Origin: Eledone cirrhosa
Taxonomy: Eukaryota
DNA length: 60,984 bases
Assembly (NCBI GenBank): GCA_964016885.1
Contig: CAXHJY010001626.1
Coordinates: 1-60,984, forward strand
Reading direction: 5' to 3'
Each line of letters starts with the position of its first letter. Position 1 is the stretch's first letter. Below are positions 13,040 to 54,655 of this stretch, in pieces. The translations under genes were made by a program, and so were the position numbers. The notes beneath the pieces were generated by a model. That model searched no databases. It saw only the letters and a list, made by a program, of their open reading frames with translations, and was not told the DNA's origin.

Positions 13040-13272
13040 ATGAAATCGAAAATGCAACTGGACCCTTTTTTTTTTTTAAATATATATTTATTTGGTTCCT
13101 TTACCAGTTTCGCATTTCTTCTGCTTTTCAAAAGTAAAGGAACCAAGTAAATATATATTTAAAAAAAAAAAAAGAGTCCAGTTGTATTTTCGATTTCATC
13201 TTTTTTCCTTATACTTTCACTCGTGTAGGACACCTCGGTTTTTTTCATTTTGTTAAAAAACCTCACTTTCTA

Positions 13273-13275
<3 letters not shown>
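13040..13275. mobile_element. Fold-back Penelope-like element terminus between microsatellites
   Basis: About 62-bp inverted arms 13040-13104 / 13134-13199; the same tail occurs at 53928-53996. Confidence 0.7.
13099..13134 (-). ncRNA. Minimal type-I hammerhead ribozyme, U3-A8 core variant
   Basis: Minus strand: CUU-UUGAAAA-GCA gaagaaa UGC-GAAA-cugg-UA/AAG. Confidence 0.65.
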
Positions 13276-13277
<2 letters not shown>

Positions 13278-13371
<94 letters not shown>

Positions 13372-13378
13372 AAGAGAA
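13278..13378. repeat. (AG)n microsatellite
   Basis: Direct reading; a (TG)n tract lies at 12910-13017. Confidence 0.98.
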
Positions 13379-14984
13379 ATATACATATATGCACAGGTGT
13401 GTTTCCTTTCTCTTCACATTCAACATCACATGCAGTGATATTTGTTTGCATCATTCATGAACAGATATAGCGCTACTCTGAAGTTAGATGTATGAAGATC
13501 TGTCATAGCATACTTAAAAAAATAAATAAAAGAAAAAAAATAGGGTTGGCATTAGGAAGGGCATCCAGCTTGATATTCCTACCTCAAAAAGTCTTGTGTA
13601 ACCTATACCAATATGATGGGAGGGGATGGAAATGGACATAAAACTGATGGTGATGATGGTGAACAGAGGTCTGCAAATGACATATGGATAGGTTTCTATG
13701 ACATGAGAAACCTAGAAACAATGGGTATTCAGAGTTATTTTAGAATAGCTCTGTTAAGTAGCAAGCATGAGTCATGGTGTGTTAGGTTATTATTACCAAC
13801 TGATAAAACCAAATGCTGTGTATGTTGTCTAATACTGGGATTGGTTACGGATCCAAATGAAGAGGCTATCTTAGCTTGTTTGCAATGTTTCCATAACAAA
13901 TATTTCTCTCATGTTAAAAGATAAACTGATTATTACATGACTAAATCATTTAAAATAACTGTAACTCTCCTCAAATTTTAAGATATAAGGTTAAAATATT
14001 GTCAAGCAAAATTACATATTTTTGAATCATTATGACAGTGATAAACATATGCTACCACACACACACACACACACACACACAACACTCACTGTTTATTGAG
14101 AGAAAGAAGGGCAATGCCTTTGACACTTTTCGGGGCCTCCAACATATGTAGGAGATAAGGAGGAATGCATTCTCAAACTGGGAACCTGGCCCAAATAGTT
14201 GCAACAGTGTGAACTCTACTAAAGGCACACAAGGACCAGGTGTAGTGTTAAACCAAGTCACAGACTAAGTCTATCACCCAAGTAAACTAAAATGTGATTT
14301 GAACTAAAAAATATATTAGTACTGTAGTATTACTGAAGACTAGTCCTTTGGATTAGCTTGTACAGTATCTTTGGCAACAAAATCTGTTAATTCCACTCCA
14401 AGCCTTTCTTTTAACTCGTAGTTATGCTTTAGAGAGTAAAAACAATGAACTCTGTCTTAATGCCAAGATATGACAAAACACACTGTGATTTAGAAGTGTC
14501 AACAATGTTACAAAATTAACTTTACTAACACACCTATGTTATAATTACTAACAGCATAAATTATAATTACTAACAGCCTCAATTATAATTACCAGCCGTG
14601 AAGTAAAATTATACGTAATAAAATAATAGAAAGTGTATGTTCACATGGTTATGCACACTGAAATTTGATTCAAAGAAGCAAGTATCACCTAATGATTATT
14701 ATATTTACAAAAAAACACAAAAAAGGTTGGTGCCAAGGAGGGAATCTAGCTGTAAAACATTACCTCAAAAAACGCCCTCATAATGAGTATGAAACCTGTC
14801 ATGAGGTCTGCAAGGAAAATAGTTTTAAAATGATTGTTGCATTTACAAATAACAAATATTATTTTACACAGTTTTTCCTGCAGTAATTTACACTACACAT
14901 CCTACCAGTTCATAAGAACTAAGAGAGGCCCTCTCCCCAATTGTCACTTCATCTGCTAAAATACCACTCAAGAAAGAAGTTAAA

Positions 14985-15215
14985 GCTAAAGTCTGTCTTA
15001 AGCCCAAACGCTCATCAGGTCGGTGCTCATCCTAGTTTCCTTGGCATTAAGCAACTGAGAGTGCGAAACATCCCCCTGGATAGGATGCATGTTAACTCAC
15101 CAGTTATTGCTGGTACTTATTTTCAGCTGAATATATTAGAGCAATGTGAAATGAAGTGTTTTGTTCAAGAACACAACACAGTACTCTGTCTAGGAATTGA
15201 ACACACAACATTCTA
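14985..15215 (-). mobile_element. CORE-like tRNA-derived SINE (family B), diverged
   Basis: Plus strand gtgaaatgaagtgttttgttcaagaacacaac is the reverse complement of the CORE-like motif. Confidence 0.6.
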
Positions 15216-15840
15216 AGACCAACGTCTTATCCCCTAGGAAAGGAAAGGAAAGGTGCCAATAGTCAGACTGAACCAAAGAAAATATATTTCCATTGGTGAT
15301 GCTCTCTGCTGGTCACAATAGCTGGCAGAAATAGCACCCAAATCTTCATCTATTCAAAACAAAAGAAAATATGAATTAAATCAAAATCTACTGCATAACA
15401 AAAGGAAGGATACATTGGATGTGTGAAAGGGTAAAAGACAAGAATATCATGGTTGGAATATCTTTAACCTGGAACTAATCAACAATAACAAGTTCATGCA
15501 CCTTACTTTATTTTACCCTCCTCTCCTCAACTACAAAAAGCATACCAAAGTAGTTCCATATTTCACATACAGTCAGAGAGTTGGAAGTTCCCCTGGCCCC
15601 TTTTTAGAGCCTTCAAAACGGCATTCTTACAACAGAGACATGGTCTGAATGCTTGTAACAGAGTGAATTTCAGTTAAAGCACCCAAGGACCAACTGGTGG
15701 TGTTGTTAAACAGTGTGACTAATTAAGACTTGCACCTAAGTAGCCCACAGTAGGATTTGAACTCAGCTGTGGCCTCTTGATTTGGGGGAAGTAATGACTC
15801 TACCTGGGGTGATTCCCTACTATCAAATAACATTATTCCA

Positions 15841-16026
15841 ATGGATTGGCAGTATTGGTAGAGGGTCGGACGCCATGCTTTCCAGCATAGTTACGTCCCT
15901 TTACGGTCCGAGTTCAAATCCCGCCGAGGTTAACTTTGCCTTTCATCCTTACGGGGTCGACAAAATAAAGTACTAGTAATGTACTGGGTAATTGATGGCC
16001 TTGTGCCAAAAGTATAAACAATTATT
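15841..16026 (+). mobile_element. SINE family A, young full-length copy
   Basis: tggattggcagtattggtagagggtcggacgcc ... gagttcaaatcccgccgagg ... gtataaacaattatt. Confidence 0.9.
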
Positions 16027-17009
16027 CCAATGACCCTTCAGAGGAATCCTATTTTGGCTGCTTGTATTCATGATCAAATTCTTTTAGTCATTACCCAAAA
16101 TTCATGACCATTGCAAACAACCAGAACAAATTCTACTAAACCACCACCCATGCTCAGTTATATTGCTTTAAAAAAATAGGTTATTTTTAGATTGCAAAAA
16201 AAATAGAATCAAATAATCAAGCACAGTACATATACTGCTGCTACTTGTTTTAAAGAGTTTGAAGTGATAACAGTGAAAACCCATCTAAATGAAACTTAGA
16301 AATATGAAGCAACAAACTTCTCATTAGACCAGCAATATACTAACTTAACTTTTTCTATAAATGATTGCAGACAAATAAGAAAAAAAAAGAAAGAAAAGAA
16401 AGAAAATATACACATACACACACACAAAGTAGTATGATGTTCTGTTAAAGAATAGAAGGGGCCACAATAATAGAAAAATATTCAATACATTAGGTAGAGA
16501 GGGCATCATCATCATAATTTCACATCCAATTTCTGTGCTGGCATGGGTTGGGTGCATTGTCATGGTTCAAGACTAGAGAGACCTCATCTTGCTAATGAAT
16601 TCCATAATTGGTTTCTATAGCTGGATGCTTTACAAACCACTTTACAAAGTGCACAAGATGCATCTTATTGGGGCAGCAGCACTATCTCATTACAGAGTAT
16701 ACTGAGAGCATTTTACCATGGCTCTAGACTTTTTATTGTCTCTATTTGTTTGGTACTTTATTTTATTTCAGTAAAATGACTTTTACAGGACTAGTTCTAT
16801 TTCACTTGATGACGAAATCATTAGATGGTCATAATATATATTATATATATTTTGGATGACTGTGCTATGTGCCTGGTTGCTATTTTTATACCTAAAAGCC
16901 ACAACCCAACATTAATCTCTCTCTATATATATATAAACAAAGGAAGTATATTTAGAAAGCAGCGAGTGAAGTTTGAAAAATGAAGCAAAAATATAAGACT
17001 TCACTGAGC

Positions 17010-17070
17010 TATATAAACTCACTAAAAAAAAAGATGGGTACTCATCTTTTTCTATTTAGTGGGTTTATAT
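17010..17070. repeat. About 60-bp near-perfect palindrome
   Basis: atataaactcactaaaaaaaaagatgggt|actcatctttttctatttagtgggtttatat. Confidence 0.8.
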
Positions 17071-17334
17071 GCCCCATTATTAAAACTATATTATCTTAGT
17101 CGGATGTTATGGTGAAGCCTTATATTCCTATAAACTATATATAAACTTGTTTGTTTTATCTCGGTGTAATAAATACACTAAATATGCACTGGATTAAGGA
17201 TTCATATACGGTACATAAAATCAATGTAACATTTGTTATTAATAGTGACTTAACTTTGAAGTTTTGTCATTTTAATAAGTCAATAATGTAGAGAAAACTT
17301 CAAAATAAACAGCTAACATTAATAACAAACATTA

Positions 17335-17399
<65 letters not shown>

Positions 17400-17512
17400 T
17401 TTGAGTATATGTTGGTTGTATAACAACCCAACCAGGAACTGGGCATATCAGAGTATTGACAAAATTATACACCTCAACAACATATGTACTTGTCTATACC
17501 ACACTTATTCGG

Positions 17513-17567
17513 ACTGCCTGAAGAAGTCACAGCCAAAGATGGCTGTCATCGAAATATATATAGCAGT
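17513..17567 (+). ncRNA. Type-I hammerhead ribozyme with canonical core
   Basis: ACUGC-CUGAAGA-agucACAGCCAaagaUGGCUGUcauc-GAAA-uauaua-UA/GCAGU, immediately followed by AATAAA; host segment 17396-17618 sits between two (AT)n tracts. Confidence 0.85.
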
Positions 17568-17611
17568 AATAAACGAAGCTAAATTTTAAACATTTGACTT
17601 ATTTATTTTAC

Positions 17612-17651
<40 letters not shown>

Positions 17652-17921
17652 ATATGGAGTCAGCAGTACAGTAAAAAGAATGTTGATTAGAATCAAGGTC
17701 AGCAACTAAGTATATGTAATTACTGAAGATCTGAGGAAATTCCAGAAGTTTGCCTGAGATGAGTTGACACAGCAAACACAAGGCAGGAAGTTGTAATGAA
17801 AGAGGAATCATTTGAACACTAAAAAAAAATGAGAGAGAAGTAGGTGTAGCAAAATGTTGGTTCTAGGAAATATATAGTGCAGAGGAGGGTTAGGAAATGA
17901 ATATATATCCCAATGCCATAT

Positions 17922-18860
17922 ACCAATGGTCTCCAACCTTTTTCTATGGTACAAACCTCAGATATTACTAAGATAATTATTAAGAACCCTTAAATTTGGT
18001 ATTTCATGATACAAACACCAAATATTACTAATCTTTTTGTTTTGAACTGTTTTATCTCCACATTTGAAAAGGGGGTATTAGCCCTGAAATATCATGTTGA
18101 GATATACTGGGTAGTTTTGTCTGATTTGACATGATTTACCCTTTATATTTTTCTCCCCCCATTGAACCAGCGTTTTAAAACTTCTACTGAGAGACTTGTA
18201 GAGAACCTTTAAAGTTGATATTTCACAATATGAACCCTAAATATTACTGAGTGACTTATCAAGACCCCTTAAACTTGACATTTCATGATGTGTACCCCAA
18301 ATATTACAGAGAGATGTATAAAGAAGTTCCTTAAACTTGATATTTCACAATACAAGCCCTAAATATTACTGAGAGACTTATAAATAACTCTTAACCCTTT
18401 TGATACCAAACTATTTTAAACTACCCTGGTTTTAGGATACAAAACTGGCCATTTCAAGATGTTCATACTTATAGTAAAACATTCCACCATATTTGTATTT
18501 AAGAAATTGTGAAAAAAATGTTCCAATCATAAGCTTACTATGAAACAGTTAGTTGTTTTATTAAATTCTTCCAAATTCTTGATTACTTTCAAAATTAATT
18601 GACACACGGAAGCAATGTATTTCATTAGAAATAAGATGAGGAAAAGAAACTTGATATTCCACAATACAAACCCCAATTATTATTGAGAGACTTATAAAGA
18701 ACCCTTACACCTTTGGAAAACACTATACCATTTCATAAAATAATAATTTATATTAAAGTAGAAGCTTTAGAATGCCATAAAGAACTCTCAAACTTTAATG
18801 ATAAATCCTTATTTCACGAACCTTAAAACTGTTTTAGTAAAGCCTTTTGGTTTGCAGAAA
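17922..18860 (+). mobile_element. hAT-like non-autonomous element with internal ~58-bp tandem units and a nested piggyBac-like MITE (18391-18650)
   Basis: Start ccaatggtctccaacctttt resembles a hAT end; unit aagaacccttaaacttgatatttcacaatacaaaccccaaatattactgagagacttata; second copy at 30.7-31.1 kb. Confidence 0.55.
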
Positions 18861-19121
18861 CCCAGGTAAAAGAATGACGAAATTAGGTTTATTTTTCAAC
18901 ATAGTCCCTGGAAAGAAACATAGCAGTTATTAATAAGAAAGTTGAAATTAATGCATACAGGATTTCACAGCTCTAACATCACTGCTTCATAGTTAGCAGA
19001 TTAACGTTTCAGCCAACCCTTGTATATCACTAATATGGTATCATATCAGATACATACCACTAACGTAGTGCTGCAATAGACACATATTACTCAATATGGT
19101 GTTAAAGCACACACATTATAT

Positions 19122-20849
19122 ATGATGAAATGCAGTTTGGGTTTGTGTTAGGTAAAAGTACCACAGACACTATTTTCTTTGTACGACAACTACAGGAGAA
19201 GTACCTAGCTAAAAGTAAACCCCTATACTTAGAATTTGTTGACTTGGAGAAAGCGTTTGACAGAGTCCCCCGCTCCATTATCTGGTGGGCTCTTAGAAAA
19301 CTAGGTGTTGATGAATGGCTTGTGAGAGCTATACAAACCATGTATAAAGAAACAGTCAGCAAAGTTAGAATTAACAATGAATATAGTGAAGAATATAGCA
19401 TAAAAATTGGTGTTCATCAAGGCTCTGTCCTTATCCCCCTCCTATTTATTATTGCCCTTCAGGCTATAACAGAAGAGTTCAAGACCGCCTGCCCATGGGA
19501 ACTTCTATACACAGATGATCTAACTCTCATAGCTGAATCGATGACTGAACTAGAGAAGAAATTCCAAACATGGAAGCACGGCCTAGAATTAAAAGGCCTT
19601 AAAGTTAACTTGTCTAAGACTAAAGTTCTAGTATGTAGAAAGGAAAATAGGGTACAGGTACCCTCTGGGAAATGGCCATGCTCAGTGTGAAGGAAAGGAG
19701 TAGGCAGAAATTCCATTTTATGTCCCAAATGCAAACTATGGGTACATAAAAGATGTAGTGGGATCACAGGTAAGCTATCTAAGAACGTAGATTTTATATG
19801 TCGCTGATGGTCAGGTGCAATAAGTAGCAAGTGCCCACAGGATACTAGCTCCTTCTATTGCCCAGATGGTTCTATAGAAATAGTGGACACCTTCCGTTAC
19901 CTGGGTGACAAAATCAGCAGTGGTGGAGGGTGCTCTGAAAGTACAGAAGCCAGAGTCAGAACGGGATGGAAAAGGTTCAGAGAGCTGATACCACCATTGG
20001 CCACTAAAGGTTTCTCTCTAAAAATGAAAGGCAGATTGTATGATGCCTGCATACGAACAGCAATGTTACATGACAATGAGACATGGGCATTGTGTGCAGA
20101 GGATCTGTGCATACTGAAGAGGAACGAAGCATGTATGCTCTATTGGATGTGTAATAGTAATATACGTGAACAGCAAGGCATAAATGAACTAAGTGAGAAA
20201 TTAGGAATAAGAGGGATCAGATGCTGTTTACTTGAGAGAAGACTACATTGGTACGGTCACGTGATGCGCATGAAAGACGACAGTTGTATAAAAAGTGCAG
20301 GGCGATCAAAATTGATGGAAGTTACGGAGTAGGCAGACCCAGAAAAACCTGGGACGATTTGATAAATCCCGACCTTACACACTTACGCCTCTCTAAGACA
20401 ATGTCACTGGACTAAGATCTTTGGCGCTACGCAGTAATACAGAAGACCCGCCTTACCTATGTACATAGCGAAACCTACAGTCAGTAGGCACCTCTTAACC
20501 AAATATACACCCCATCCCACTACCCCCCCTCCCCGCTCCCACCAACACCACCCTTTCTCTGTAAAGTTATGTTGGTACCACAACATCCAGTCCAAAATAA
20601 ATGAGGTTGTGTAGGTGTCACGACAAAAAACACACAGTCCATGCTGTAATGTGGCCGTGTAGGTAACAGTAAAAACCTCCCAGTCCACTGTAAACGTGGT
20701 TGGTGTTAGGTAGGGCATCCAGCTGTAGAAAACCTGCCAGACAGTCCTATGCGAGCAAGACATGGTCACCCAACCAATCTTGCCTCAAGTGGGACAATTC
20801 CCGTCTAAACCCATGCTAGCGTGGAAGATAGACGTTAAACAATGATGAT
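19122..20849 (+). mobile_element. 5'-truncated RTE-clade LINE (RT C-half, PHD-like finger, 3' UTR), with stops
   Basis: QFGF..GKSTTD, FVDLEKAFD, GVHQGSVL, LYTDD, FRYLG, RRLHWYGHV; stops near 19688 and 19806; (GAT)n tail. Confidence 0.95.
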
Positions 20850-21179
20850 ATATATATATATATAATGTTACTCTATTATGCTGCCATATCTGATAGGTGT
20901 CACTAATATAGGGTAAAAAATTTTCAAACTTACTAACATGACATGATAATATGTTTAATAGGACTAATGTGCCATTGTGAATGTAATGGTTAAGGGGTTT
21001 GCTTCACAGCCATGTGGTTTTAGATTAAATCCCACTGAGAGGCACATTGAGAAAGTATCTTCTACTATAGACCTGGACCAATCAGTGCCTAATAAGTGAA
21101 TTTAGTAGATGGAAGCTGTGAGAAAGCTACTCGTGTGTGAGAGAGAGGGTGCAAATATTAATATCCACACCATTTACAG

Positions 21180-21545
21180 CAAGCAGTGGATGAACGGAGA
21201 TAAAATAACATAGTTTAGTCTTGCAAGATTCAAAGCAAACTCACTACTGCTAGTGCCAAGATAACTGTTAACCAATACACTCTGTAGAGTGGTTAGCAAA
21301 CACACAGAGACAATGTAGGGTTGAGAGGGTCCTTTTTGTCCTGCCGAGGACATAACCACCTCTTTAATGCTGTTGCCGTGATAAAATGCACCCAGTATAC
21401 TTTGTAAAGTGGTTGGAGTTTGGAAGGACATCCAGCCATAGAAACCATGAAAAAGAATGAATGTATAAGCAAGAGGTGTTTCTCTGAATCTCCAAATCTC
21501 AGGCTCTGGGGACCTGTTCAACCCTTGCTAGCATGGAAAGCATGT
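21180..21545 (+). mobile_element. Diverged RTE 3' UTR fragment
   Basis: gtggttggagtttggaaggacatccagcc ... aacccttgctagcatggaaa. Confidence 0.6.
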
Positions 21546-21562
21546 TTAGCTTTTAAATTTAC

Positions 21563-21750
21563 CTAACTACTTCTGATAAAAGTATTTAATTCAGCCTCCT
21601 GCCTTTCATGCCTCTGGGAAATGACTCCGAGATACTTGAACTTCTCCTGATGCAGTGCAACTCCACTCACACGCAGAGTGTACCATGCAGGCTTACTCGA
21701 AAGGACTAGCTTCCCAGTGTTTGAAGCACTGATTCCTACATTCCTGACAC
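21563..21750 (-). pseudogene. RT C-terminal fragment of a second RTE family lacking the PHD insert
   Basis: Minus translation GISASNTGKLVLSSKPAWYTLRVSGVALHQEKFKYLGVISQRHERQEAELNTFI. Confidence 0.7.
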
Positions 21751-22079
21751 TAGACCAGTGATTCCTAAACCTCTTGTCACAGAATCCTTACCCTAAATCA
21801 CATATACAAGAAGAGCTAGATAGAAAGGAAAGCTAGAAAGGGAGAGAGCAAGTGAGACACACAGACACAAAACAACATTAAAAGATATAATACTGAATTC
21901 TGATGTCAATGAAAGCAGCAAAAAGAATGATTAAGTTAGATTGTCAGCCTTTATGTGACAGACGGACAGGGATGACTTCAATTATAATATAGATTAATAA
22001 TAAGTTTCGACAGTTTGCAGAAACATTAGCTACATTAAATATCGTTTTAAATGTTGATGGCAGCTCAAAGCAATTAGCC

Positions 22080-23452
22080 TCAGTATGGTTTCTTTCCTCC
22101 ATTTCCCCTGCTGCTATCTCGAAGGTCCTGCAAAATTCTGTTGTACTGCTCTTCTCCAGCTTTGACTATAGCACAAGAAGAATGAGCAATAAATACAGAA
22201 TGATTGCAAAGAGGTAAGATAAACAAAAACATTATAAAAGATAAATAGTATAGAAAGAAATAAGTAAAGTCAAAATAGAAATATTTATATAACTGACAAT
22301 ATATTGTTGCTCAGTGATGTCTGCTATCTTTTCTTTATAGTACAATATTTCAACATTGATGAGGTTCTATTATGGTCATAATTGCTTGGGCTATTAGCCT
22401 CATCTTTACTATGTATATATATATATAATATATAAGTGAAGGCGTGTGGCTGAGTGGTTAGAGAATTGGATTCGCAATCGTAAGGTTGTGAGTTCGATTC
22501 CTGGACCAGGTGATGCGTTATGTCCTTGAGCAAGACACTTTATTTCACGTTGCTCCTTCTACCGGGAGTTGCGACCGATAGATAGTATTAGCAATTGGAA
22601 AGACCAATGGAAACATTGTTCCCTCGGTCCGATTTGACGAAAGTCGATCGTTCCTTTATATATAATATATATATCTACACTATTAGCCTCATCTTTACTA
22701 TGTATATATATAATATATCTACACTATTAGCCTCATCTTTACTATGTATATATATAATATATCTACACTATTAGCCTCATCTTTACTATGTATATATATA
22801 ATATATCTACACTATTAGCCTCATCTTTACTATGTATATATATAATATATCTACACTATTAGCCTCATATTTACCATGTATATTTATAATATATATATTT
22901 ACACTATGAGCCTCATATTTACAGTGACATTTACACTATATGTATATCCTTAAATTATTAACTTGTCCAACCCATGCAAGCATAAAAAAGATGCGATATA
23001 TATATATATATGCTAGTGTGGAAAGTGGACGCTAAACGATGAGCAAGGTACCAATATTAGCACTCTATGCTATATATTAAGAACAAAAGGAGGTTTCACA
23101 TTGAGGTTTTTATTTATTAGGCTCTGTTACAAATGTTTCACGGATGGGTGGTTCAGGATCTACATTAGTAGACCCCCCCCCCCCCCCAGCTTCAATCTGT
23201 TTATCAGACTTGTTAATTAAGCAAAACCAAAATCTCAACTCATGCGAAACCACATTTTTTTCTTAATATATATATATTTTGTTGTTGTTGTTGTTGTTGT
23301 TGGATTGCCAGTCTGAAGAGCAGATTGATAATGGAGTCAGATCCATAACTTCTATGGGTGACCTTGGGCCAATCATCTGTGAAACATGCGTAACAGGTCA
23401 ATACACGATAAAAAACTAAATACATGTAAACAAAACTTCTTCATTTTTCTTA

Positions 23453-23494
<42 letters not shown>

Positions 23495-23928
23495 TAATAA
23501 AATAATGAATAAACAAAGAAACAGTTCCTTATATTAAAAAAAATTCATCATTTTACGATCGTTTCTAGGATATATATGTGTTAGAGTTGGTATGCATATT
23601 CTATAGATCTATGTACAATATTTATACAAACTATCAGAGGAAATATACATACCTACACATAGATATGCTGTCTTTAGAAATGAATTTTTTTTAATATAAG
23701 GAACTGTTTCTTTGTTTATTCATTATTTTATTAATTTATCTTGACTCTGTTTTCCGTTTATTTTTCACCGAAAATAGTTTTTGAATGCATCTTCTCTTTT
23801 CATGATATCCGGATTACATTGAGTTCTTCATACAGATTGGACACTACCGTAAACTTTTGGTAGATTTATCTACATACTATATATATATATATATATATAC
23901 ACACACATATATATATATACACACACAC

Positions 23929-23965: not shown

Positions 23966-26900
23966 GAGGCATACATATACACTATAAGCCTCAACTTTAC
24001 AGTGTATAGTGATTATATATCCACTACTAACCTTATCTTTACCATGTATCATCATCATCATCGTTTAACGTCCATGTTCCACGCTTGCATGGGTTTGGAC
24101 GGGAGTTTTCCCACTTGAGGCAAGAGTGGTTGTCTTGCTCGCATAGGACTGTCTGGCGGGTTTTCTACAGCTGGATGCCCTTCCTAATACCAACCACATT
24201 TACAGTGTGGGACTGGGAGGTTTTTACCGTGTTGCCTACACGGCCACATTACAGCGTGGACTGTGTGTTTTTTGTCGTGACACCTACACGATCTCATTTG
24301 TTTCGGTCTGGATGTTGTGGCACCAACATAACTTTACATTGAAAGGGGCGGTGTGGATGGGGTGGGGGTGGTGGGACGGGGGTGTGTTTTGTTAGAAATG
24401 CCTACTGACTGTAGTAGGTTTTACTTTGTATTCAGGTAAGGCGGGTCTTCTCTATTACTGAGTACTGCCAAAGATCTCGGTCCAGTGACATTGTCTTGGA
24501 GAGGTGTAAGTGTGTGAGGTCGGAATTTATCAGGTCGTCCCAGGTTTTTCTGGGTCTGTCTACTCCGTGGCTACCGTCTATCTTTATTGCCCTGCACTTT
24601 TTTATACAGCTGTCGTCTTTCATGCGCATCACGTGACCATACCAACGTAGCCTTCTCTCGACTAAACATCTGATCCCTCTTATTTCTAATTTTTCCCTTA
24701 GTTCGTTTATGCTTTGCCGTTCGCGTATATTACTATTACACATCCAGCGGAGCATGCAAGCTTCGTTCCTCTCTAGTCTGCGTATATCCTCTGCACACAA
24801 TGCCCAGGTCTCACTGCCATGCAACATTGCTGTTTGTATGCAGGCATCATACAGCCTGCCTTTCATTTTTAGGGAGAACCCTTTAGCGGCTAATAGTGGT
24901 ATAAGCTCTCTGAACTTTTCCCATCCAATTCTGACTCTAGCTACTGTACTTTCAGAGCACCCTCCCCCACTGCTGATTTTATCACCCAGGTAACGGAAGC
25001 TGTCCACTATTTCTTTAGAACCCTCTGCGCAATTGAAAGAGCTAGTATTTTGTGGGCACTTGCTGCTACTTATTGCACCAGAGCACCGGCCACATGTAAA
25101 ATCTATGTTCTTAGTTAGCTTACCTGTGATCCCACTACATCTTTTATGCACCCATACTTTGCATTTGGGACATAAAATGGAGTTTCTACCTACGCCTTTC
25201 CCACACACTGAGCATGGCCATTTCCCGGAAGGGACCGGCACCTTATTTTCTTTCCTACAAACTAGAACTTTAGTCTTAGCCAGGTTAATTTTAAGGCCTT
25301 TTGATTCTAGGCCGTGCTTCCATGTTTGGAATTTCTTCTCTTGTATATTTACAATATTTATATCTACACTGTTAACCTCATATATATATATATAATTACA
25401 ATATTCATACCTAGATTATTAACTTAATATTTAGACATTATCTGTTTACAATATATCTATACTACTCCCCTTATCTTTACAGTGTATATGTTCAATATTT
25501 ATATCTTCACTATGTATTTCATGTTTACAGTATATATTTACAATATTTCTATATATGCCCTATTAACTTGATCTTTAAAGTATATATATATACAATATTT
25601 TTATATATAAACAATTAACCTTATAATTAGAGATAATTAAATCACTGGTAATATCCTCTTTAATTTGTATTTCAATTATCGTAGAATATAAGTCGTAGCT
25701 GTTTAACCACCATCTCCACCCAAAAACCCTGCAAGTGCAAAAATCCACATGTGACTTATCTATTGTACTTTGCTCTGGACTTAAAATCTGTTGTACACAC
25801 AGATAGAGAGGAAAATGGCTGTGTACATGGGTGTTTGGTTATGTCACACTATATGAAAATCAACATTGTAAATAAATATACATTGATGATGCCATGCATA
25901 AAAACTGCTTGAACAGAATTCAATTCTCCTATATAAACACATTCTATTACGATATATAGTCATATGAATTTTTATATACAAGCCTTCCACTTGTGCAAGA
26001 CATGTATATACACAGTTCTCCATTGCTCGACTGGTTGTAATTTTAATGCTTATAAGATGGTGTATATATTGTCAATGAATCAGAAGAAATGAATTAATAG
26101 CACCAGTTAAACTGTTTATTTCAATTAAATATTGGGGTTTTTATTACTATTATTATTTTAACACTAAGGGCGGTGGAATGGCAATATTGGTAGAGGGTCA
26201 GACACCATGCTTTGACGCATAGAGTTATGGCCCTTGCCATTCTGAGTTCAACCATCAATTTTTTTTGTCACATACATATTCCTTGGCTTATATCCGAGTA
26301 CATACGGTAAATTATTTTTAGTGATTATGTTGAGTCATGAATTAAAGGAACTAAATACACCCAGAGAATGACTAAAAGAAATATGAGTCTTCCTTGTGTA
26401 CAAACAATTGATTCCATGGCAGAATAAACTAAATATAAAATGTTCTTTTGGCATGTTATTTGGTGATTTACAATGAAAATACTGAATCCTCTCAAATGAG
26501 AGTAAGAATTATAACTTAGAAAACAAATGTTATTGGTATTGTCATCATATTACAACTACCAATTTAAAAATAAAACTCCATTAAGCAACAAGCAGTCAGT
26601 CTGACTTGATACTTTGTGTTTTTTCTAGAAATTTCTATTAATTTGCTGAAAGAATTAAAATAGGTACCCAGCTGTATAAAGGTGCAGGAGGAGAGATACA
26701 TCAAGTATACAATATACCAGGAATCAGGAAACCTTTTCAATATGAAGAGCTATATTTGACTAAATAAAATAATAAAGATTTTTTACCAACAATTTGGGGA
26801 CATGAGTAAGCTGAGTATATTAACCACAATACTAAAGAAGTATTTTATTTTTTGACCATGGAAGGATGAACAGCAAAGTTAACCATGGTAGAATTTGAAC

Positions 26901-39141: not shown

Positions 39142-39518
39142 CATGTTACAAATATTAAGTCTCTCTAAAAAAAAAGCTTTTTCTATTGCTATCGAAGCGG
39201 TATAAGCTTAACCGTCGGGTAAAGAAACCCTGTAATATTATCTACATTTTACTTTCCTTAAGTATAGAATACTAAGTTGAATAGTGGTCTGACTGGTCTT
39301 AACTAGTAGTATCTCATTTCTCTCTCTCCCTCCCCCACACACGCAAGCACGCCCACCACCTTCGTGTCCTAATGTCACCTCAGAAGACACCGTCTTCACC
39401 CACCCTCACGCTACTTCCTCTTCTCCATTTTTCTAAATAATACCTACAATTCTTTCTTTTCTCTTTTACTTCTACTCACTTCCTTTAAACCTTCCTCTCG
39501 TTCCCAATTCTATACTCC

Positions 39519-39556
39519 CCTTTCTGATGAAAGACTAGCGTCCGAAATGTAAAAGG
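39519..39556 (+). ncRNA. Minimal type-I hammerhead ribozyme
   Basis: CCUUU-CUGAUGA-aaGACuagcGUCc-GAAA-ug-UA/AAAGG; stem III consistent with an ACGU palindrome after CpG decay. Confidence 0.8.
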
Positions 39557-40249
39557 CATTCATTTATTTCATGTAAAATTACTTCTGTAAAATTCCAGAA
39601 TTTCTCTCTCTCCCTCTTATACACACATGTCTGTGTGTATAAGTGTATACATAGAAACATTGGTTTCACATGTTTCTTTTTTTCATCTATTTAAGCTCGC
39701 TACGGTTTGGTATCAGGTGCTTGGCTATTCCAGAGCCCTAGTCTCGCTCTCATCTGCGATAACACCATATCTTGGCTTGCCTCCAAAAATGTTAGAGGAC
39801 AACACCTGTGTTCCCTATTGCAGCGTGTAATTGGATGTATATGTCTCTTTGTTTTTTCTCTCCTTTCTGACTTTTTTTTTTTGTATCTTTTGTAAACGTT
39901 ATATAATTATATATAGGAAATAATTTTGTAGAACAATCAGAAATATATATATATATATATATGTAAAATAAACTGTATGTAATATTGTCTCATAACATGC
40001 TAGAATCGGTACAATTATATATCAACGAGGCGATGTGCTTTTTTTTCTCTCTCCTTTTTTATGTGTTGTGAACACCAAGATACCCCGATAAGCTAACTGG
40101 AAACCCTATCTTCAAACCAGTCGGTATTGACACTAAGCTGGAATTACCAACATGTTCTTGAGAAAAGCATCAATGACATACCCATTTACTACCACAAATA
40201 CAGAAAAGGCTGTCTAATCATTCTAACATAGATCGTAAGTGAAGTCAGT

Positions 40250-40729: not shown

Positions 40730-41019
40730 GTAGTTTAGAGGAGAATGACATGAACATCCTAGTCTCCTATCTTGCACCCCCAGGACACCATGTGTAACAA
40801 AGTAATTAGTGTAATCGATTGATTGATTGATTGGTGATGACATGACGGCGACTAAACGAAAATTATCAGAAAATTACCGAACTTTTAGCTTTGACACTAA
40901 AAATAAGGACGAGACTGCTGCTACGGTTATACTTCATTAGTTTATAATGAGAGGGGGGTGTAAATAGTGAGGGAGTGAGGTGTAAAGAGAGAATGAGAGA
41001 CTGATAGTGATATACTGAG

Positions 41020-44000
41020 AGAGAGTGATAGACTGGGAGAGGCATGTAGAGAGAGATAGTGCTAGACAGAGAGAGGGATGTAGAGAGAGATAGTGCTAGA
41101 CAGAGAGAGGCATGTAGAGAGAGATAGCGATAGACAGAGAGAGGGATGTAGAGAGAGATAGCGCTAGACAGAGAGAGGCATGTAGAGAGAGATAGCGCTA
41201 GACAGAGAGAGGCATGTAGAGAGAGATAGTGCTAGGCAGAGAGATGTAGAGAGAGATAGTGCTAGACAGAGAGATGTAGAGAGAGATAGTGCTAGACAGA
41301 GAGATGTAGAGAGAGATAGTGCTAGACAGAGAGAGGGATGTAGAGAGAGATAGCGCTAGACAGAGAGAGGGATGTAGAGAGAGATAGCGCTAGACAGAGA
41401 GAGGGATGTAGAGAGAGATAGCGCTAGACAGAGAGAGGGATGTAGAGAGAGATAGCGCTAGACAGAGAGAGGGATGTAGAGAGAGATAGCGTTAGATAGA
41501 GAGAGGCATATAGAGAGAGATAGCGCTAGACAGAGAGAGGCATATAGCGAGAGATAGTGCTAGACAGTGAGAGGCATGTAGAGAGAGATAGTGCTAGACA
41601 GAGAGATGTAGAGAGAGATAGTGCTAGACAGAGAGAGAGGCATGTAGAGAGAGATAGTGCTAGACAGAGAGAGGCATGTAGAGAGAGATAGTGCTAGACA
41701 GAGAGATGTAGAGAGAGATAGTACTAGACAGAGAGAGGCATGTAGAGAGAGATAGTGCTAGACAGAGAGATGTAGAGAGAGATAGTGCTAGACAGAGAGA
41801 GGGATGTAGAGAGAGATAGTGCTAGACAGAGAGAGGCATGTAGAGAGAGATAGTGCTAGACAGAGAGAGGCATGTAGAGAGAGATAGCGCTAGACAGAGA
41901 GAGGGATGTAGAGAGAGATAGTGCTAGACAGAGAGAGGCATGTAGAGAGAGATAGCGATAGACAGAGAGAGGGATGTAGAGAGAGATAGCGCTAGACAGA
42001 GAGAGGCATGTAGAGAGAGATAGCGCTAGACAGAGAGAGGCATGTAGAGAGAGATAGTGCTAGACAGAGAGATGTAGAGAGAGATAGTGCTAGACAGAGA
42101 GATGTAGAGAGAGATAGTGCTAGACAGAGAGAGGGATGTAGAGAGAGATAGTGCTAGACAGAGAGAGGGATGTAGAGAGAGAGAGGCATGTAGAGAGAGA
42201 GAGGGATGTAGAGAGAGAGAGGCATGTAGAGAGAGATAGTGCTAGACAGAGAGATGTAGAGAGAGATAGTGCTAGACATAGAGAGGCATGTAGAGAGAGA
42301 TAGCGCTAGACAGAGAGAGGGATGTAGAGAGAGATAGTGCTAGACATAGAGAGGCATGTAGAGAGAGATAGCGCTAGACAGAAAGAGGGATGTAGAGAGA
42401 GATAGTGCTAGACAGAGAGATGTAGAGAGAGATAGTGCTAGACAGAGAGAGGCATGTAGGGAGAGATAGTGCTAGACAGAGAGATGTAGAGAGAGATAGT
42501 GCTAGACAGAGAGAGGGATGTAGAGAGAGATAGTGCTAGACAGAGAGAGGCATGTAGAGAGAGATAGTGCTAGACAGAGAGAGGCATGTAGAGAGAGATA
42601 GTGCTAGACAGAGAGATGTAGAGAGAGATAGTGCTAGACAGAGAGAGGCATGTAGGGAGAGATAGTGCTAGACAGAGAGATGTAGAGAGAGATAGTGCTA
42701 GACAGAGAGAGGCATGTAGGGAGAGATAGTGCTAGACAGAGAGATGTAGAGAGAGATAGTGCTAGACAGAGAGAGGGATGTAGAGAGAGATAGTGCTAGA
42801 CAGAGAGAGGGATGTAGAGAGAGATAGTGCTAGACAGAGAGGCATGTAGAGAGAGATAGTGCTAGACAGAGAGATGTAGAGAGAGATAGTGCTAGACAGA
42901 GAGATGTAGAGAGAGATAGTGCTAGACAGAGAGAGGCATGTAGGGAGAGATAGTGCTAGACAGAGAGATGTAGAGAGAGATAGTGCTAGACAGAGAGAGG
43001 GATGTAGAGAGAGTGCTAGACAGAGAGAGGGATGTAGAGAGAGATAGTGCTAGACAGAGAGAGGGATGTAGAGAGAGGTAGTGCTAGACAGAGAGAGGCA
43101 TGTAGAGAGAGATAGTGCTAGACAGAGATGTAGAGAGAGATAGTGCTAGACAGAGAGAGGCATGTAGAGAGAGATAGTGCTAGACAGAGAGATGTAGAGA
43201 GAGATAGTGCTAGACAGAGAGATGTAGAGAGAGATAGTGCTAGACAGAGAGAGTGATGTAGAGAGAATGCTAGACAGAGAGAGGGATGTAGAGAGAGATA
43301 GGGCTAGACAGAGAGATGTAGAGAGAGACAGAGAGAGGGATGTAGAGAGAGATAGTGCTAGACAGAGAGAGGGATGTAGAGAGAGATAGTGCTAGACAGA
43401 GAGAGAGAGAGATGTAGAGAGAGATAGTGCTAGACAGAGAGATGTAGAGAGAGATAGTGCTAGACAGAGAGAGGGATGTAGAGAGAGATAGTGCTAGACA
43501 GAGAGAGGCATGTAGAGATAGTGCTAAACAGAGAGATGTAGAGAGAGATAGTACTAGACAGAGAGATGTAGAGAGAGATAGTGCTAGACAGAGAGATGTA
43601 GAGAGAGATAGTGCTAGACAGAGAGAGTGATGTAGAGAGAATGCTAGACAGAGAGAGGGATGTAGAGAGAGATGTAGATAGAGATAGTGCTAGACAGAGA
43701 GAGGCATGTAGAGAGAGATAGTGCTAAACAGAGAGATGTAGAGAGAGATAGTACTAGACAGAGAGATAGTGCTAGACAGAGAGATGTAGAGAGAGATAGT
43801 GCTAGACAGAGAGAGTGATGTAGAGAGAATGCTAGACAGAGAGAGGGATGTAGAGAGAGATAGGGCTAGACAGAGACAGAGAGAGGGATGTAGAGAGAGA
43901 TAGTGCTAGACAGAGAGAGAGATGTAGAGAGAGATAGTGCTAGACAGAGAGATAGTATTAGACAGAGAGATGTAGAGAGAGATAGTGCTGAACAGAGAGA

Positions 44001-44040
44001 TGTAGTGATAGACTGAGAGAGAGAGAAAGAGTTGTAGAGA
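41020..44040. repeat. About 3 kb purine-rich satellite with 30/34/36-bp units
   Basis: Unit atgtagagagagatagtgctagacagagagagg(c); length varies by AG steps. Confidence 0.97.
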
Positions 44041-44394
44041 GATATATTAATGGAGACAAGGGAGAGATAGAGAGACAGCAAATATTTGATTGATTTCCTG
44101 AGATACAAACGGAAGCGAATAAAAAAAAAAGTGCACTGTTTAACAGAACTATCGATCTTACTGACATGGCTGAATGACCCCTAGTTGTTGATGGCAGCTG
44201 TAATCACAGTTGACTAGACCAGGGAACATCACGTACCTTGTGAAATCTCTTAGCATCACGGACGGTCAACCCTAAAATACTATAAATGTCGCCATCTACA
44301 CATCTCCAATCTCCATCACACATAGACAATTTTATCAGCAGTTTTCACAGGCTTCAACATACTACGCTTTATGATGATGATGGCGGTGATGGTC

Positions 44395-44699: not shown

Positions 44700-45490
44700 T
44701 TGGAAAGCAGCACTTCCCTCTCTATCTTGATTTAATCTTTAAGTGAAACCTGAAAAAGTTAATCAGGGCATCGCTGAAGAGGAAGGTGTATGTCTTCAAC
44801 CCATTCAGACATGTCCACCACACGACTTCTTTCACCATGGTCACAAGGTAAATACAAACTGCCTGCCCTTCCCGGTTAAAGGAAGGCGGCGAGGCGATCT
44901 TGACGATGGACACAGTTGATAGCCGAATCCGTCCCACACATGACATCAGGTGTTCGACATAAACCTACAAGTCAGCAATAGTCAGACACTCGACGAATGC
45001 GTGCAGGACGGTTTCGTCGTCCAGCGCGCATCTCGGATAGGCCCGGTTGGAAGTACTTTTATGCCTGTAGAGTTTATCTCGAACTGGCAGTGCTCTCCGG
45101 TAGCACTGCCAAGCTAGGGATCTCTGGAAGTTATCCATGGTGCCTGGACCGAAAGTTCTCCGGAAAAAATTAGCTAGTTGATTATCGTCGACGTCCAGGA
45201 CTCTTCAATAACGTCGTCGCTTTTATCTTCCACTAACCCTCAATAGAAAGCCATGGTGGAGTCTCCACCGATCGTACTGTCCGGTTGGTAGAGGAATGTG
45301 AGCGCTTGAAGACATTCCAGTCTCCAAGCGCTTCCTCTCGGTCTTCGCTTGACCCAGAACTGCAGTTCCGTCAAGGAGACGAGCTGGGGGAAAACGTGTT
45401 TCGCGAACGGCGACTACATCTGTTCACCGTGAAGGAAGAGTTGGAGATGCCGTAGCCTCAGCGCATGTTTGTGCATAATCAGCCACGAAA
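44700..45490 (-). pseudogene. L1/Tx1-clade LINE ORF2 C-terminal fragment (zf-RVT region)
   Basis: Minus translation HALRLRHLQLFL ... AWQCYRRALPVRDKLYRH...YPRCALDDETVLHAFVEC, with stops. Confidence 0.8.
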
Positions 45491-49859: not shown

Positions 49860-50170
49860 CTACAACGGTACGCGATGGGGCCCACCCACAGCCCCGGCGG
49901 ACAGAATGGAGAAGGCGTTTCCCCGGAGGACGGCGAGGGAGACGCGCTGGAAGAGACACTTCAACTCGCGGGGCTCACACCTGCGGCTGGCCAGCTCAGC
50001 GCCTATGGTGGTGAGTAAGGAGGTAGCCCTGGGGCCGAGGACACCAGAAGTCTCCACTGCCAGGGGTACGACCGCAAACCTGTCGGAGAGCGTCCGGTAT
50101 TTGAGGAGTTTGGCCCCCTCAGCCCGACGTGCAGCAGAACCTGGGTCAGTTGCAGTATCGGCCGCTTTCT
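49860..50170 (-). pseudogene. C-terminal REL endonuclease region of a CRE-like non-LTR retrotransposon
   Basis: SAARRAEGAKLLKYRTLSDRFAVVPLAVETSGVLGPRATSLL...LFQRVSLAVLRGNAFSIL. Confidence 0.85.
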
Positions 50171-50177
50171 GATAAAT

Positions 50178-50350
50178 TTATAGCTGTGTAGACTTCTGGC
50201 GTTTTGAGCCCTCGAACCACCTCCCTACTCACTACTAACGGGAAGGAGTTGGCCACTCACAAGAGTAAGCCATGCGAGCTAGAATGGCTATTTCAACGCC
50301 TCTCCTTCGCTATCCTCCGGGTTAACGCTTTCTCTATTCTGCCCGCTGGT
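50178..50350 (+). pseudogene. Second CRE-like REL fragment, head-to-head with the first
   Basis: TSGVLSPRTTSLLTTNGKEL...LEWLFQRLSFAILRVNAFSIL. Confidence 0.8.
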
Positions 50351-50498: not shown

Positions 50499-50539
50499 AG
50501 AAGTCAAACGAAGGGTTTTGTTCGAAACGTTTGACTTCT
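50499..50539 (+). ncRNA. Hammerhead remnant whose 5' core is overwritten by an inverted copy of its 3' flank
   Basis: agaagtcaaacg-aagggttttgttc-gaaa-cgtttgacttct: 12-bp perfect inverted repeat around ..CGA..GAAACGUU. Confidence 0.45.
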
Positions 50540-50556
50540 GTTCTTCACAAGAAGCA

Positions 50557-51849: not shown

Positions 51850-52200
51850 AATAATTGTTTCTACTTTAGGCACAAGGCCAGCAATTACCCAGTGCATTAC
51901 TGGTACTTTATTTTATCGACCTCGTAAGGATGAAAGGCAAAGTCAACCTCGTCGGGATTTGAACTCAGATCGTAAAGGGACGTAACTATGCTGGAAAGCA
52001 TGGCGTTCGACCCTCTACCGATACTGCCAACCCACTATCTAAAACATAGCAAGAGACAATTGTTCTACTATTGGCACAAGGCCAGCAAATACCCAGTGTA
52101 TTACGCATACTTTATTTTATCGACCCCGTAAAGATGAAAGGCAAAGTTAACCTCGGCGGGATTTGAACTCAGAATGGCAAGGGCCGTAACTCCATGCGTC
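51850..52200 (-). mobile_element. Two tandem SINE family A copies
   Basis: Tails at 51850 and 52058. Confidence 0.9.
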
Positions 52201-53889
52201 AGCAAGAGATAATGATGCAGGGACCACTGTGTATTGCAGTCTCCGTATATATTGTTTATGTTCTATTGTGTTAGAAGTGATTTTCTGGTTAACATTTTCG
52301 TCTCGTCTATCGATTATTTTTTCTTGGAAATTATTATGAATTTGTTTCCTCTTTAAAATTCATAACATTCACGCTCTATCTCTCTCATACTTCCTAAATT
52401 CTTCACTTATTTTCCTCTATTCTTTTAAATCTAAAAAAAAACACATTATAATAAAACTACGAGGATATCTAAAGTGAAAAGGCAGAGAAAAACAAATATA
52501 CAATACGAGGTTAATTGTGTATTTAGGCCTGGCATATATAGCATGCATGCATACTCAGAGCTTTTAGTATCTATATGTGTGTGTGTAAGTGCGTGTTTGT
52601 ATAAACGTTAACACGGTGTGTTATATGAATACACGTCAATACGGTATATGAGTGTGTGTGTGCAAATAGATTTGCTGAGGTCATCGAGATTGTTGCTGCA
52701 ATCCGGTTGAAATTAAAGGGAGACAACTGGACATAGCCACACATGTCGGCCGATAGGTGCAATGTAGTCGGTGCATTCTTTCAACATGTGGCCGACCGAG
52801 ATTTTATATACGCTGACAGACTTCGCGCTCTAAAGCGTTTGTTTTTTTTTTTGTTTTTCAATATTACGTAAACACATACGAGCGAAAAATGTTTTGCACA
52901 TTAAAAATAAGATTAAATGTGGAACCTCTTTATAAATATAGCTTACTCAGATAAAGTATTTAATAATATAAAGACATGACTGCAGTTTAGTCTCCACTCC
53001 GACTTTGTTTACATAATAAATCACACTTTTTAAGTGAAATATTATAGAGATACGTTTTCGAAAGTGTAGATTACAATCATACTGGTGAAATCCCTCTCTC
53101 TCTATCTTTACTTCAGAATCGTAGAAATGATATTACTCAAAATTTGACCTTATCCTAGCTGATATTATTCATTATCAACATGAAATTCGAAAGCATAGAA
53201 AAAGCATTTCCCGAGTTTATGTTCAGCCTGCTACAAATACAAATCGAATGTATTCAGTAAATCATATATTTTTAAGGTCCCTAGCAATAATTAATTGTAT
53301 TCAATAAATGAAAGCATTAATTAACTATACAACAATGAAAATATTTTTAAAAACATTAAATCAATATTTTTAAATTGCATCAACACAATCGTACTCTACA
53401 CCTTGGAAAACATACCTCTGCAAAATTTCGTAAACGATATGATGCATTATTGAGAAAGTTATGAGAAAACAAAGACGAGGTGGGCGTACTAACACTAAAC
53501 TGTAGCTATACCGTTATTTCTTTATCTTCCTGTTGACATATGACTCGGAAGTAGTAGAACGAGTGCAACACCAATCTCATAAATATTTTCTATAGTATAA
53601 CATATCTCTCATTAAGTTACATCATCGACTACATTGAAAACAGACAGAAAAGAAACTGAACATTCCAACATAAAAATGTACTATTTTCTACTGAATCATC
53701 GATATTAAAACAAAGCTGTTACAGAGGAGGGGGGGCGGCTGGAACCCGCGGTATTTAACACCAGGTCAACCTGCCATGATAGACGACACTTAATATTTAA
53801 CTGATTTCACTCATTAGACTGCGGCCAGTGCTTTTTTTTTTTTTTTTCATACTTATTTTACAATTAAAACTACAAACCCTCCATCTCAA

Positions 53890-53933
53890 TTCTACTTTTG
53901 AAAAGCACAAGAACTGCGAAACCGTTAAAGGAA
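53890..53933 (+). ncRNA. Minimal hammerhead, U3-A8 core variant (second copy)
   Basis: uucuaCUU-UUGAAAA-GCA caagaac UGC-GAAA-ccgu-UA/AAGgaa, then AATAAA, ~65-nt tail and (AT)n. Confidence 0.65.
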
Positions 53934-54007
53934 CCAAATAAATATTTTTTTTTTAAAAAGACGCCAGTTGCATTTTCGATTTCATTTTTTTTCCTTATAT
54001 ATATATA

Positions 54008-54362
54008 TGTTTCTAATTTTGGCACAAGGCCAGCAATTATCGCAGTGCATTACTGGTACTTTATTTTATCGACTCCGTAAAGGCAAAGTTGACCTCGGCG
54101 GGACTTGAACTCAGACCTTAAAGGGCCATAACTATGCCGCAAAGCATGTTGTTCAACCCTCTGCCGATACTGCCAATTCACCGCAATAATAATTGTTTCT
54201 ACATTTGGCACAAGGCCAGCAATTAGCCAGTGCATTAGTGGTACTTTATTTATCGACCCCGTAAGGATGAAAGGAAAGTTAACCTCGGCAGGAACTAAAC
54301 TCAGACTGTAAAGGGCCATAGTTTTGTGCTGCAAAGCATGGCGTCCGACCTTCTACCGATAC
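54008..54362 (-). mobile_element. Two tandem SINE family A copies
   Basis: Tails at 54008 and 54188. Confidence 0.9.
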
Positions 54363-54574
54363 AAACATGAACAAGGTGGCAAATTTTCATTAAAACCCCA
54401 TAAATATATTTACACTCTACCATTCCAAGTATCGAGTCCTCTGCTAAATAATGGGTTTACTAGTTTAAAACTGGTAATCCTGATATATATATATATATAT
54501 ATTGCCTTTTTGCTACAATATTTTCTATACCTTTCATTTATATATATATAAATAAATATATATATATATATATA

Positions 54575-54655
54575 TCACATAAGAAACGGAGAATCAGTGG
54601 TGCGATGAATTAACATTTATTAGACATAACAATCGTTTCTCTGGCGACCAGTTCG
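54575..54655 (-). ncRNA. 3' half of a hammerhead plus tail ending in (TA)n
   Basis: Minus strand CUGG ucg CCAG a-GAAA-cgauug-UU-auguct-aataaa; 5' core lost at the adjacent SINE. Confidence 0.4.

Follow-up and report, generated by a model that had tools for sequence, protein, structure and literature searches.

Here, we describe a dispersed set of hammerhead ribozyme motifs in a contig of Eledone cirrhosa (CAXHJY010001626.1, positions 1 to 60,984; 'the window' is this whole stretch of 60,984 nucleotides) and the short repeats that carry them, which are probably the heavily 5'-truncated 3' ends of several families of Penelope-like elements (PLEs). The window has 35% GC and is rich in satellites and in (AT)n, (AG)n and (AC)n tracts, with fragments of long interspersed nuclear element (LINE) reverse transcriptases (RTs) and many copies of repeats resembling short interspersed nuclear elements (SINE-like repeats). 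An earlier note on this DNA had proposed six type-I hammerheads from at least five unrelated families; all six were found where it placed them, and the count is now seven copies with a whole core (13099, 17513, 18064, 23304, 23548, 39519 and 53890), which form six families, A to F, together with up to three remnants.

Hammerhead census

The descriptor built for this analysis, which runs from stem I through the core, stem II, GAAA, a palindrome and UH to stem I', was applied to both strands of the window, with 100 local (500-nt) dinucleotide shuffles of the window serving as the null model. Its strict form gave three matches against a shuffle mean of 0.0, its relaxed form eight against 0.71 and its one-mismatch form 12 against 2.54; in this comparison with shuffled sequence, which the earlier note had itself suggested, counts of at least three, eight and 12 were reached in 0/100 shuffles at the respective settings. 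The hammerhead motifs in the window are real. Two of the eight relaxed matches (17723 and 13884) look like chance, and descriptor matches at 21506 and 60291 are at chance level and were discarded.

A reading of the motifs as chance, or as dead sequence without a hammerhead history in AT-rich, repeat-rich DNA, can point to the two doubtful relaxed matches and to the Rfam hammerhead covariance models, another check proposed beforehand, which gave no match for the 17513, 18064 and 39519 regions in two local searches (E ≤ 10) and no hammerhead among the 150 listed of 218 whole-window rows. The shuffle counts stand against it, and further evidence on both sides is given with the copies below.

The hammerhead-bearing elements

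Family A has two copies. The first (13037..13278, minus strand) is a tails-out inverted insertion made up of an inverted tail (13134-13278), a U3-A8 core at 13131-13125, a predicted cut after 13102 and a 65-nt tail, with (AG/TC)n tracts on both sides; the second (53848..53995, plus strand) has about 50 nt upstream, a U3-A8 core at 53898, a predicted cut after 53927 and a 68-nt tail that runs into (TA)6. Their tails align (score 73), which places them in one family, and the copies are 84% identical over 100 nt by within-window BLAST. Of the remaining 44 tail pairs just two matched, both weakly and in AT-rich sequence (p 0.005 and 0.04, uncorrected), and apart from these the tails are unrelated between families.

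Family B (17400..17618, plus strand) has 118 nt upstream of a CUGAAGA core at 17518, an extra A before the G10.1-C11.1 pair, the stem III AUAUAUAU, a predicted cut after 17562 and a 56-nt tail, with (TA)n on both sides. An ATG within its stem II opens a 16-codon frame into the tail (17536-17586, plus strand), with an early stop in the window copy. Family C (23278..23457, plus strand) begins with a (TTG)n lead and has a CUGAAGA core at 23313, a predicted cut after 23392, a decayed stem III and a 65-nt tail that ends in a (TA)17 common to family D, in which the two elements, 23304 and 23548, meet tail-to-tail. Family D (23492..23877, minus strand) is the second tails-out inverted insertion, with an inverted tail of about 200 nt (23680-23877), a core at 23677, a predicted cut after 23554, a 62-nt tail and (TA)n on both sides. 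The stem II regions of these two families are long, 60 nt in C and about 105 nt in D, where the region forms a hairpin that folds better than shuffles (z = -3.7).

Family E (39333..39599, plus strand) carries a 191-nt pyrimidine-rich lead, a CUGAUGA core at 39524, a predicted cut after 39551, decayed stems II and III and a tail of about 50 nt. It is flanked by a 17-bp direct repeat (39316..39332, which includes a (TC)n run, and 39600..39616, both on the plus strand), a target-site duplication. Family F (18030..18184, boundaries approximate, plus strand) has a U3-A8 core at 18064, a predicted cut after 18093 and a tail of about 90 nt, and is inserted in a 60-bp AT-rich satellite, not in a microsatellite; its hammerhead (18064-18093, plus strand) shares the top descriptor score and had been overlooked in the earlier note.

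Also overlooked was a probable remnant at 56360..56455 (minus strand), whose motif (56444-56410) scores 20 where shuffles give 0.28 matches at 19 or more. It has a UUGAGGA core, an extra G, a 6-bp stem II closed by G-C, a 4-bp stem I and a tail of about 50 nt into a (TG)-like run, and it lies at the edge of a LINE fragment; its support is moderate. The two remnants already known, listed as 50499 and 54575, retain only the 3' half, that is, GAAA, a palindrome-like stem III and UH. At 50500..50552 (plus strand), where stem III is ACGU, stem III and stem I' seem to recur as an inverted copy of 11-12 nt in place of the 5' core half. At 54576..54665 (minus strand), a stem II hairpin, GAAA, a decayed 8-nt palindrome and a 52-nt tail into (AT)n are left, the core having been lost beside a SINE-like repeat. 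A scan for extra 3' halves 45-80 nt upstream of microsatellites gave weak AT-rich matches only.

Core and stem anatomy

The core had been described as CUGANGA throughout, and this holds literally for three of the six layouts (17518, 23313 and 39524); 13099 and 53890 read UUGAAAA, and 23548 reads CUAAAGA. The UUGAAAA cores, at 13131 (minus strand) and 53898 (plus strand), are the U3-A8 covariant of the C3-G8 pair, a variant present in two independent families, A (13099 and 53890) and F (18064). With this covariant allowed, the core C3-U4-G5-A6-N7-G8-A9, GAAA and UH are all present in 6/7 whole-core copies, the seventh being 23548. A stem III that is, or derives from, a palindrome had likewise been claimed for every site: the palindrome is perfect in 17513 and 23548, and since one or two changes separate the other four stems from perfection, the palindromes listed for those sites are reconstructions; the stem III of 18064 is also a perfect palindrome.

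Stems I and II pair across the whole-core hammerheads, according to both the descriptor and folding. At 10.1-11.1, beside the core, a G-C pair plus an extra base after A9 is found in 17513 and 56410, the G-C pair without an extra base in family A, G.U in 23304 and 18064, and a mismatch in 39519 and in family D, where it is apparently family-wide. The minimum-energy fold of 18064 is compatible with a hammerhead; the window copies 13099, 23304 and 39519 fold better in other shapes, which would suit a chance origin of the motifs. Against such an origin, the two copies of family A have the U3-A8 double change in common and differ in where their stems II and III are broken.

Tails and their targets

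It had been claimed that most tails end in (AT)n or (AG)n, and in 7/9 elements an (AT)n or (AG/TC)n tract does follow the predicted cut, at a narrow range of distances (66, 57, 66, 63, 52, 69 and 52 nt); the two undocked elements are 18064 and 50499. This clustering of tail lengths also tells against chance. Among the eight relaxed-descriptor matches, five have such a tract 45-80 nt downstream, compared with 3.9% of random sites (p about 5e-6), the descriptor being blind to microsatellites and the 45-80 nt range having been chosen after seeing the data. Tracts of the same type flank both sides of 13099, 17513, 23304 and 23548.

Tails-out inversions

The insertions at 13037-13278 and 23492-23877 have the same structure, in which the hammerhead stands between an inverted copy of the tail on one side and a shorter tail on the other, and both ends lie in microsatellites. 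In each the inverted arm is longer than the other arm (about 145 nt in 13099 and about 200 nt in 23548), so that simple fold-back of one complementary DNA (cDNA) would be ruled out and two priming events would be needed. The inverted arm of 13099 begins 0-3 nt 5' of the predicted cut, within a 3-nt microhomology, and that of 23548 begins 3-6 nt past it; both joints thus map to stem I, -3 to +6 nt from the predicted cut. The arms of the family D inversion are identical at 60/60 positions in the window.

Family D in sequencing reads

Sequencing runs from four coded organisms contain parts of 13900-23890. One family, D, was mapped on reads, with 23492-23877 as the query; the depths are not copy numbers. 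It was covered by 2,113 contigs in run X1 (organism A), 1,139 in X4 (organism B) and 9 in X7 (organism D), and by 5,604 of 12.47 million raw reads in run X8 (organism A, reduced representation). Family D is a large dispersed family.

The reads bear directly on the aberrant core of the window copy 23548. As 744/753 reads keep G5, the G5-to-A change (CUAAAGA) in 23548 is a private mutation, and the stem II pair that is broken there is intact in 1,025/1,033 reads. Position 17 is A or U only (U in 1,623/2,947 reads), and no change in GAAA or in the ACGAUCGU palindrome appears among the 40 of 47 rows listed. Stem I position 5, which is C-G in the window, has U on the 5' side and A (1,690/2,887) or G on the 3' side in most sister reads, the two sides being unphased. 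Sister copies that restore the catalytic G5 and the stem II pair are hard to square with motifs arisen by chance, a reading that is by now largely refuted and that we find scarcely credible.

The tail has two ends, about 140 nt apart, at which 731 reads (long end) and 282 reads (short end) pass into TA-rich repeats. Upstream of stem I, 532 reads run into other AT-rich sequence (agreement 0.63). As a whole the tail folds no better than shuffles (z = -0.8). Near the long-tail end, 23804-23850 (plus strand) is, with the stem III region, the best covered part in the related organism B, and may serve as a signal for protein binding or for the start of reverse transcription. The joint of the window inversion is crossed by 10/753 reads, of which eight with a changed letter begin at seven places, and the inversion is a minority form of the family, though the polymerase chain reaction may under-sample hairpins. 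Five reads invert at the 5' edge of the hammerhead instead, and in six X1 contigs (five joint rows) 143-151 nt are passed over, with two tails meeting and no hammerhead between them; both kinds of joint may be alignment effects in A/T runs. Exact-pattern scans found the family A motif 0 times in metagenome contigs and the family D tail motif 0 times in metagenome and viral contigs, and a loose U3-A8 pattern led to 11 viral loci with no real likeness to the window elements (one 21-nt match, E 0.008), which we take as chance.

The abundance of family D, and its non-coding tail, raise the alternative that some families, D above all, are whole short non-autonomous elements, that is, monomeric retrozyme-like derivatives of PLE pseudo-long terminal repeats (pseudo-LTRs), moved by PLE proteins in trans and perhaps via circular RNA. 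Precedents exist, in that animal retrozymes have been traced to PLE pseudo-LTRs and occur as dispersed monomers (Li, Clavereau and Pollet 2026; 10.64898/2026.07.22.740005), and non-autonomous pseudo-LTR elements are known for Chlamys (PMC8557442). However, no tandem hammerhead unit occurs in the window, the tail ends of family D enter (TA)n with no tail-to-hammerhead joint among the 15 of 17 joints listed, and its copies carry on past the 5' side of stem I into sequence that does not resemble the tail end (the 532 loosely agreeing reads). Retrozyme hammerheads, moreover, are described as canonical, not minimal (Cervera and de la Pena 2020; PMC7229834). The term 'retrozyme-like', as used in the earlier note, is not supported in its defined sense, in which copies would be tandem units, and we consider whole short elements an unlikely account.

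A probable Penelope-like origin

The reading that we prefer is that the repeats are the truncated 3' ends of PLEs, and several of their traits are those of PLEs: a hammerhead near the 3' end followed by a fixed-end tail (52-69 nt in 7/9 elements, and in the family D reads two ends that recur), 5' truncation next to a copy in inverted orientation (13037-13278 and 23492-23877), and a target duplication (39316/39600) along with microsatellite targets. The proposal of Penelope-type termini without open reading frames (ORFs) in the earlier note fits the minimal hammerheads, the microsatellite docking, the target duplication, the inverted copies and a large dispersed family whose core is intact; a PLE origin is likely, though inferred. 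Within the window, no pair of partial tandem copies forms direct pseudo-LTRs around an ORF.

Several observations weigh against this origin. Pfam, run on 92/103 stop-free frames of at least 72 aa (the 11 left out run through simple repeats), found no GIY-YIG, as would be expected of stubs and as the earlier note had stated for both GIY-YIG and a Penelope RT; it placed RVT_1 in one fragment, of LINE type, besides PHD and zf-RVT domains. No PLE coding sequence was tied to any hammerhead family. The family D tail, tried as the N-terminus of a protein, has no homologues, and indels within the family break the frame. The C.A mismatch at 10.1-11.1 of family D, beside the core, shows no correction among the 40 of 47 rows listed, and with the stem II of about 105 nt it departs from the published consensus (PMC4209133). 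The optional PLE tail that has been published spans 30-40 bp between two start sites, as against about 140 nt between the family D ends. To these may be added the silent Rfam searches and the fact that one of the six families has been followed on reads.

The density of the motifs had been called striking. The ten elements amount to 1.8 kb, or 3.0% of the window, less than the 6.83% of the Octopus vulgaris genome that is covered by 190 Penelope-like families (Bonar et al. 2026; PMC13282606), so that, provided the host resembles it, the density calls for no particular explanation. It does exceed published strict counts of hammerheads (about 9,000 in Xenopus tropicalis; PMC4209133), although one window cannot fix a genome-wide rate.

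A possible mechanism

A model for how such stubs might form comes from PAc (Poseidon, Anolis carolinensis), a PLE protein that nicks AT-rich DNA and extends both strands, reverse transcribing uncut RNA from two start points within it, which set the tail (Frangieh et al. 2024; PMC11167929). By analogy, a PLE protein would bind a tandem or circular transcript, and the GIY-YIG nuclease of the element would nick (TA)n or (AG)n DNA. The RT would then start inside the RNA about 50-70 nt past the hammerhead cut site, and in family D also at about 200 nt, and would copy back through the still-uncut hammerhead, usually stopping within 0-200 nt. Where both strands were nicked and extended, two outward-pointing cDNAs could join to give a tails-out inversion, with stem I complementarity providing a ready joint between them. 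Cleavage by the hammerhead is predicted to take place on the parent tandem transcript, in dimeric form through its palindromic stem III or with the help of the element protein; most genomic stubs, being solo and decayed, are probably inactive. The motifs, the lengths and docking of the tails, a single target duplication, two inversions and one large family with an intact core are observed; the PLE parent, every enzymatic step and cleavage are drawn from PAc and from work of 2014 on minimal hammerheads (see below).

A more speculative extension, which we regard as rather improbable, gives cleavage itself a part: cutting in vivo would set the 5' end of one template, whose cDNA would thus end at the cut site, and stem I would anneal that cDNA to a second cDNA that had copied an uncut hammerhead. 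The idea arises because both inversion joints lie -3 to +6 nt from the predicted cut and because tails of 52-69 nt recur in six unrelated families; it would account for inverted pseudo-LTRs, would make the shared spacing of 50-70 nt part of the same mechanism and, if true, would give the hammerhead a job in integration. Counting against it, microhomology in stem I alone predicts the same joints without cleavage, the window joint of family D is crossed by just 10/753 reads while five others invert at the 5' edge, and hammerhead mutants of PAc insert normally, with no RNA-seq reads ending at the cut (PMC11167929).

Other repeats in the window

The window also holds an interrupted (AT)n tract of 5.5 kb (2-5531) and satellites with a 25-bp unit (6882-8591) and with AG-rich units of 16-64 bp (41006-44046). 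A LINE fragment with a PHD finger has a 69-nt inverted duplication, 97% alike, at its 3' end (55300-55368 and 55474-55542); further fragments of this family, which we take to be RTE-like, lie at 19106-20490 (plus strand) and 24400-25415 (minus strand), and the RVT_1-bearing LINE fragment is presumably also RTE. Two inverted fragments, 71% alike and with no Pfam match (49894-50060 and 50183-50349), resemble the C-terminal restriction-like endonuclease region of CRE/Hero-type non-LTR elements, a label that we assume. The zf-RVT-bearing fragment at 44725-45204 (minus strand) is probably from an L1/Tx1-like element. A tRNA-like sequence at 60762-60834 (plus strand; 43.7 bits, above the Rfam gathering score) adjoins SINE-like repeats and is either a tRNA gene or a SINE head. 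The SINE sequence and the repeat make-up look octopus-like, which was not borne out by protein searches: one with a LINE fragment pointed to no cephalopod (best matches at 63%), and one with a SINE-derived frame gave no match.

That LINE RT fragments are common, that one LINE end has a short inverted duplication (55300-55542) and that 56410 adjoins a LINE fragment could suggest that the stubs were carried by another class of retroelement (RTE or CRE/Hero-type LINEs), or are inverted repeats derived from DNA transposons. No match between a hammerhead unit and a LINE fragment appears among the within-window BLAST matches listed, however; the units have neither poly(A) nor the tandem-repeat tails of LINEs, and the inversions, unequal in length and centred on the hammerhead, differ from terminal inverted repeats. 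We therefore judge another carrier very unlikely, and return to PLEs for the comparison that follows.

Comparison with known systems

Minimal hammerheads were described in the pseudo-LTRs of PLEs by Cervera and de la Pena (2014; PMC4209133), as thousands per genome, in many families and mostly as single copies, with opposite-strand pairs occurring and with low activity that appears only as dimers. The hammerheads of the window resemble these in being type I, with a stem I of 4-5 bp and a palindromic stem III, in lying mostly on single, dispersed, truncated copies from many families, in the extra base before G10.1-C11.1 of some copies (17513 and 56410 here) and in the U3-A8 variant, which has about 1,300 matches in Schistosoma mansoni. 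They differ in the stem II regions of families C and D, at 60 and about 105 nt compared with the 7-8 bp described. In the parts of that paper examined the molluscs are Lottia and Crassostrea, with no cephalopod named, and microsatellites, in which most tails dock here, are unmentioned. We found no published account of hammerheads in cephalopods, or of inversion joints placed relative to the cut site, either of which subscription papers, Repbase or supplements may hold, and the parts seen of the 2026 O. vulgaris repeat annotation mention neither hammerheads nor ribozymes (PMC13282606).

As in PAc, the hammerhead is followed by a tail that leads to an AT-rich target, with two tail ends in family D, and nicking of both strands by PAc would explain the tails-out inversions. 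PAc, in contrast, has its start sites about 85-90 nt or farther downstream of the cut, where the tails here measure 52-69 nt. Its ORF starts inside the hammerhead, in stem II, which the ATG frame of family B recalls, and its activity, unlike the predicted cleavage of the stubs, has been measured; its hammerhead cuts only with the protein and is dispensable for insertion in vitro (PMC11167929).

Inverted 5'-truncated copies, junction palindromes, tails and a bias to microsatellites or (TA)n have all been described for PLEs (Craig et al. 2021, PMC8557442; Arkhipova et al. 2013, PMC3846280). Like endonuclease-bearing PLEs, the window elements have a head-to-head inverted 5'-truncated copy beside the direct copy with junction palindromes, a tail that is longer on one side, and microsatellite targets, as in Naiad and Neptune (PMC3846280, PMC8557442). 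The parts of these papers examined ascribe junction palindromes to self-priming and do not tie them to the hammerhead, whereas both joints here fall at stem I; and the Naiads, which are (TA)n specialists, lack canonical hammerheads. With animal non-LTR retrozymes the stubs share the absence of an ORF, a type I hammerhead, low GC, a length of a few hundred bases and a link to PLE pseudo-LTRs (PMC7229834; 10.64898/2026.07.22.740005), from which retrozymes are likely derived (preprint 10.64898/2026.07.22.740005). Retrozymes, by contrast, are defined by a tandem arrangement of their units, by canonical hammerheads and by abundant circular RNA of 170-400 nt (PMC7229834), and the window elements form no tandem units and have minimal hammerheads.

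What the hammerhead does for PLEs is still regarded as open (PMC8557442), and genomes with many short stubs offer a test bed in which the positions of tail ends and inversion joints relative to the cut can be determined with high statistical power. Two features may be new: the recurrence of 52-69-nt tails in families that are unrelated, and the location of inversion joints at the predicted cut. Set beside the known systems, the window extends a known feature, minimal hammerheads at PLE ends, to a further animal genome, and adds two independent U3-A8 families and one family with a very long stem II.

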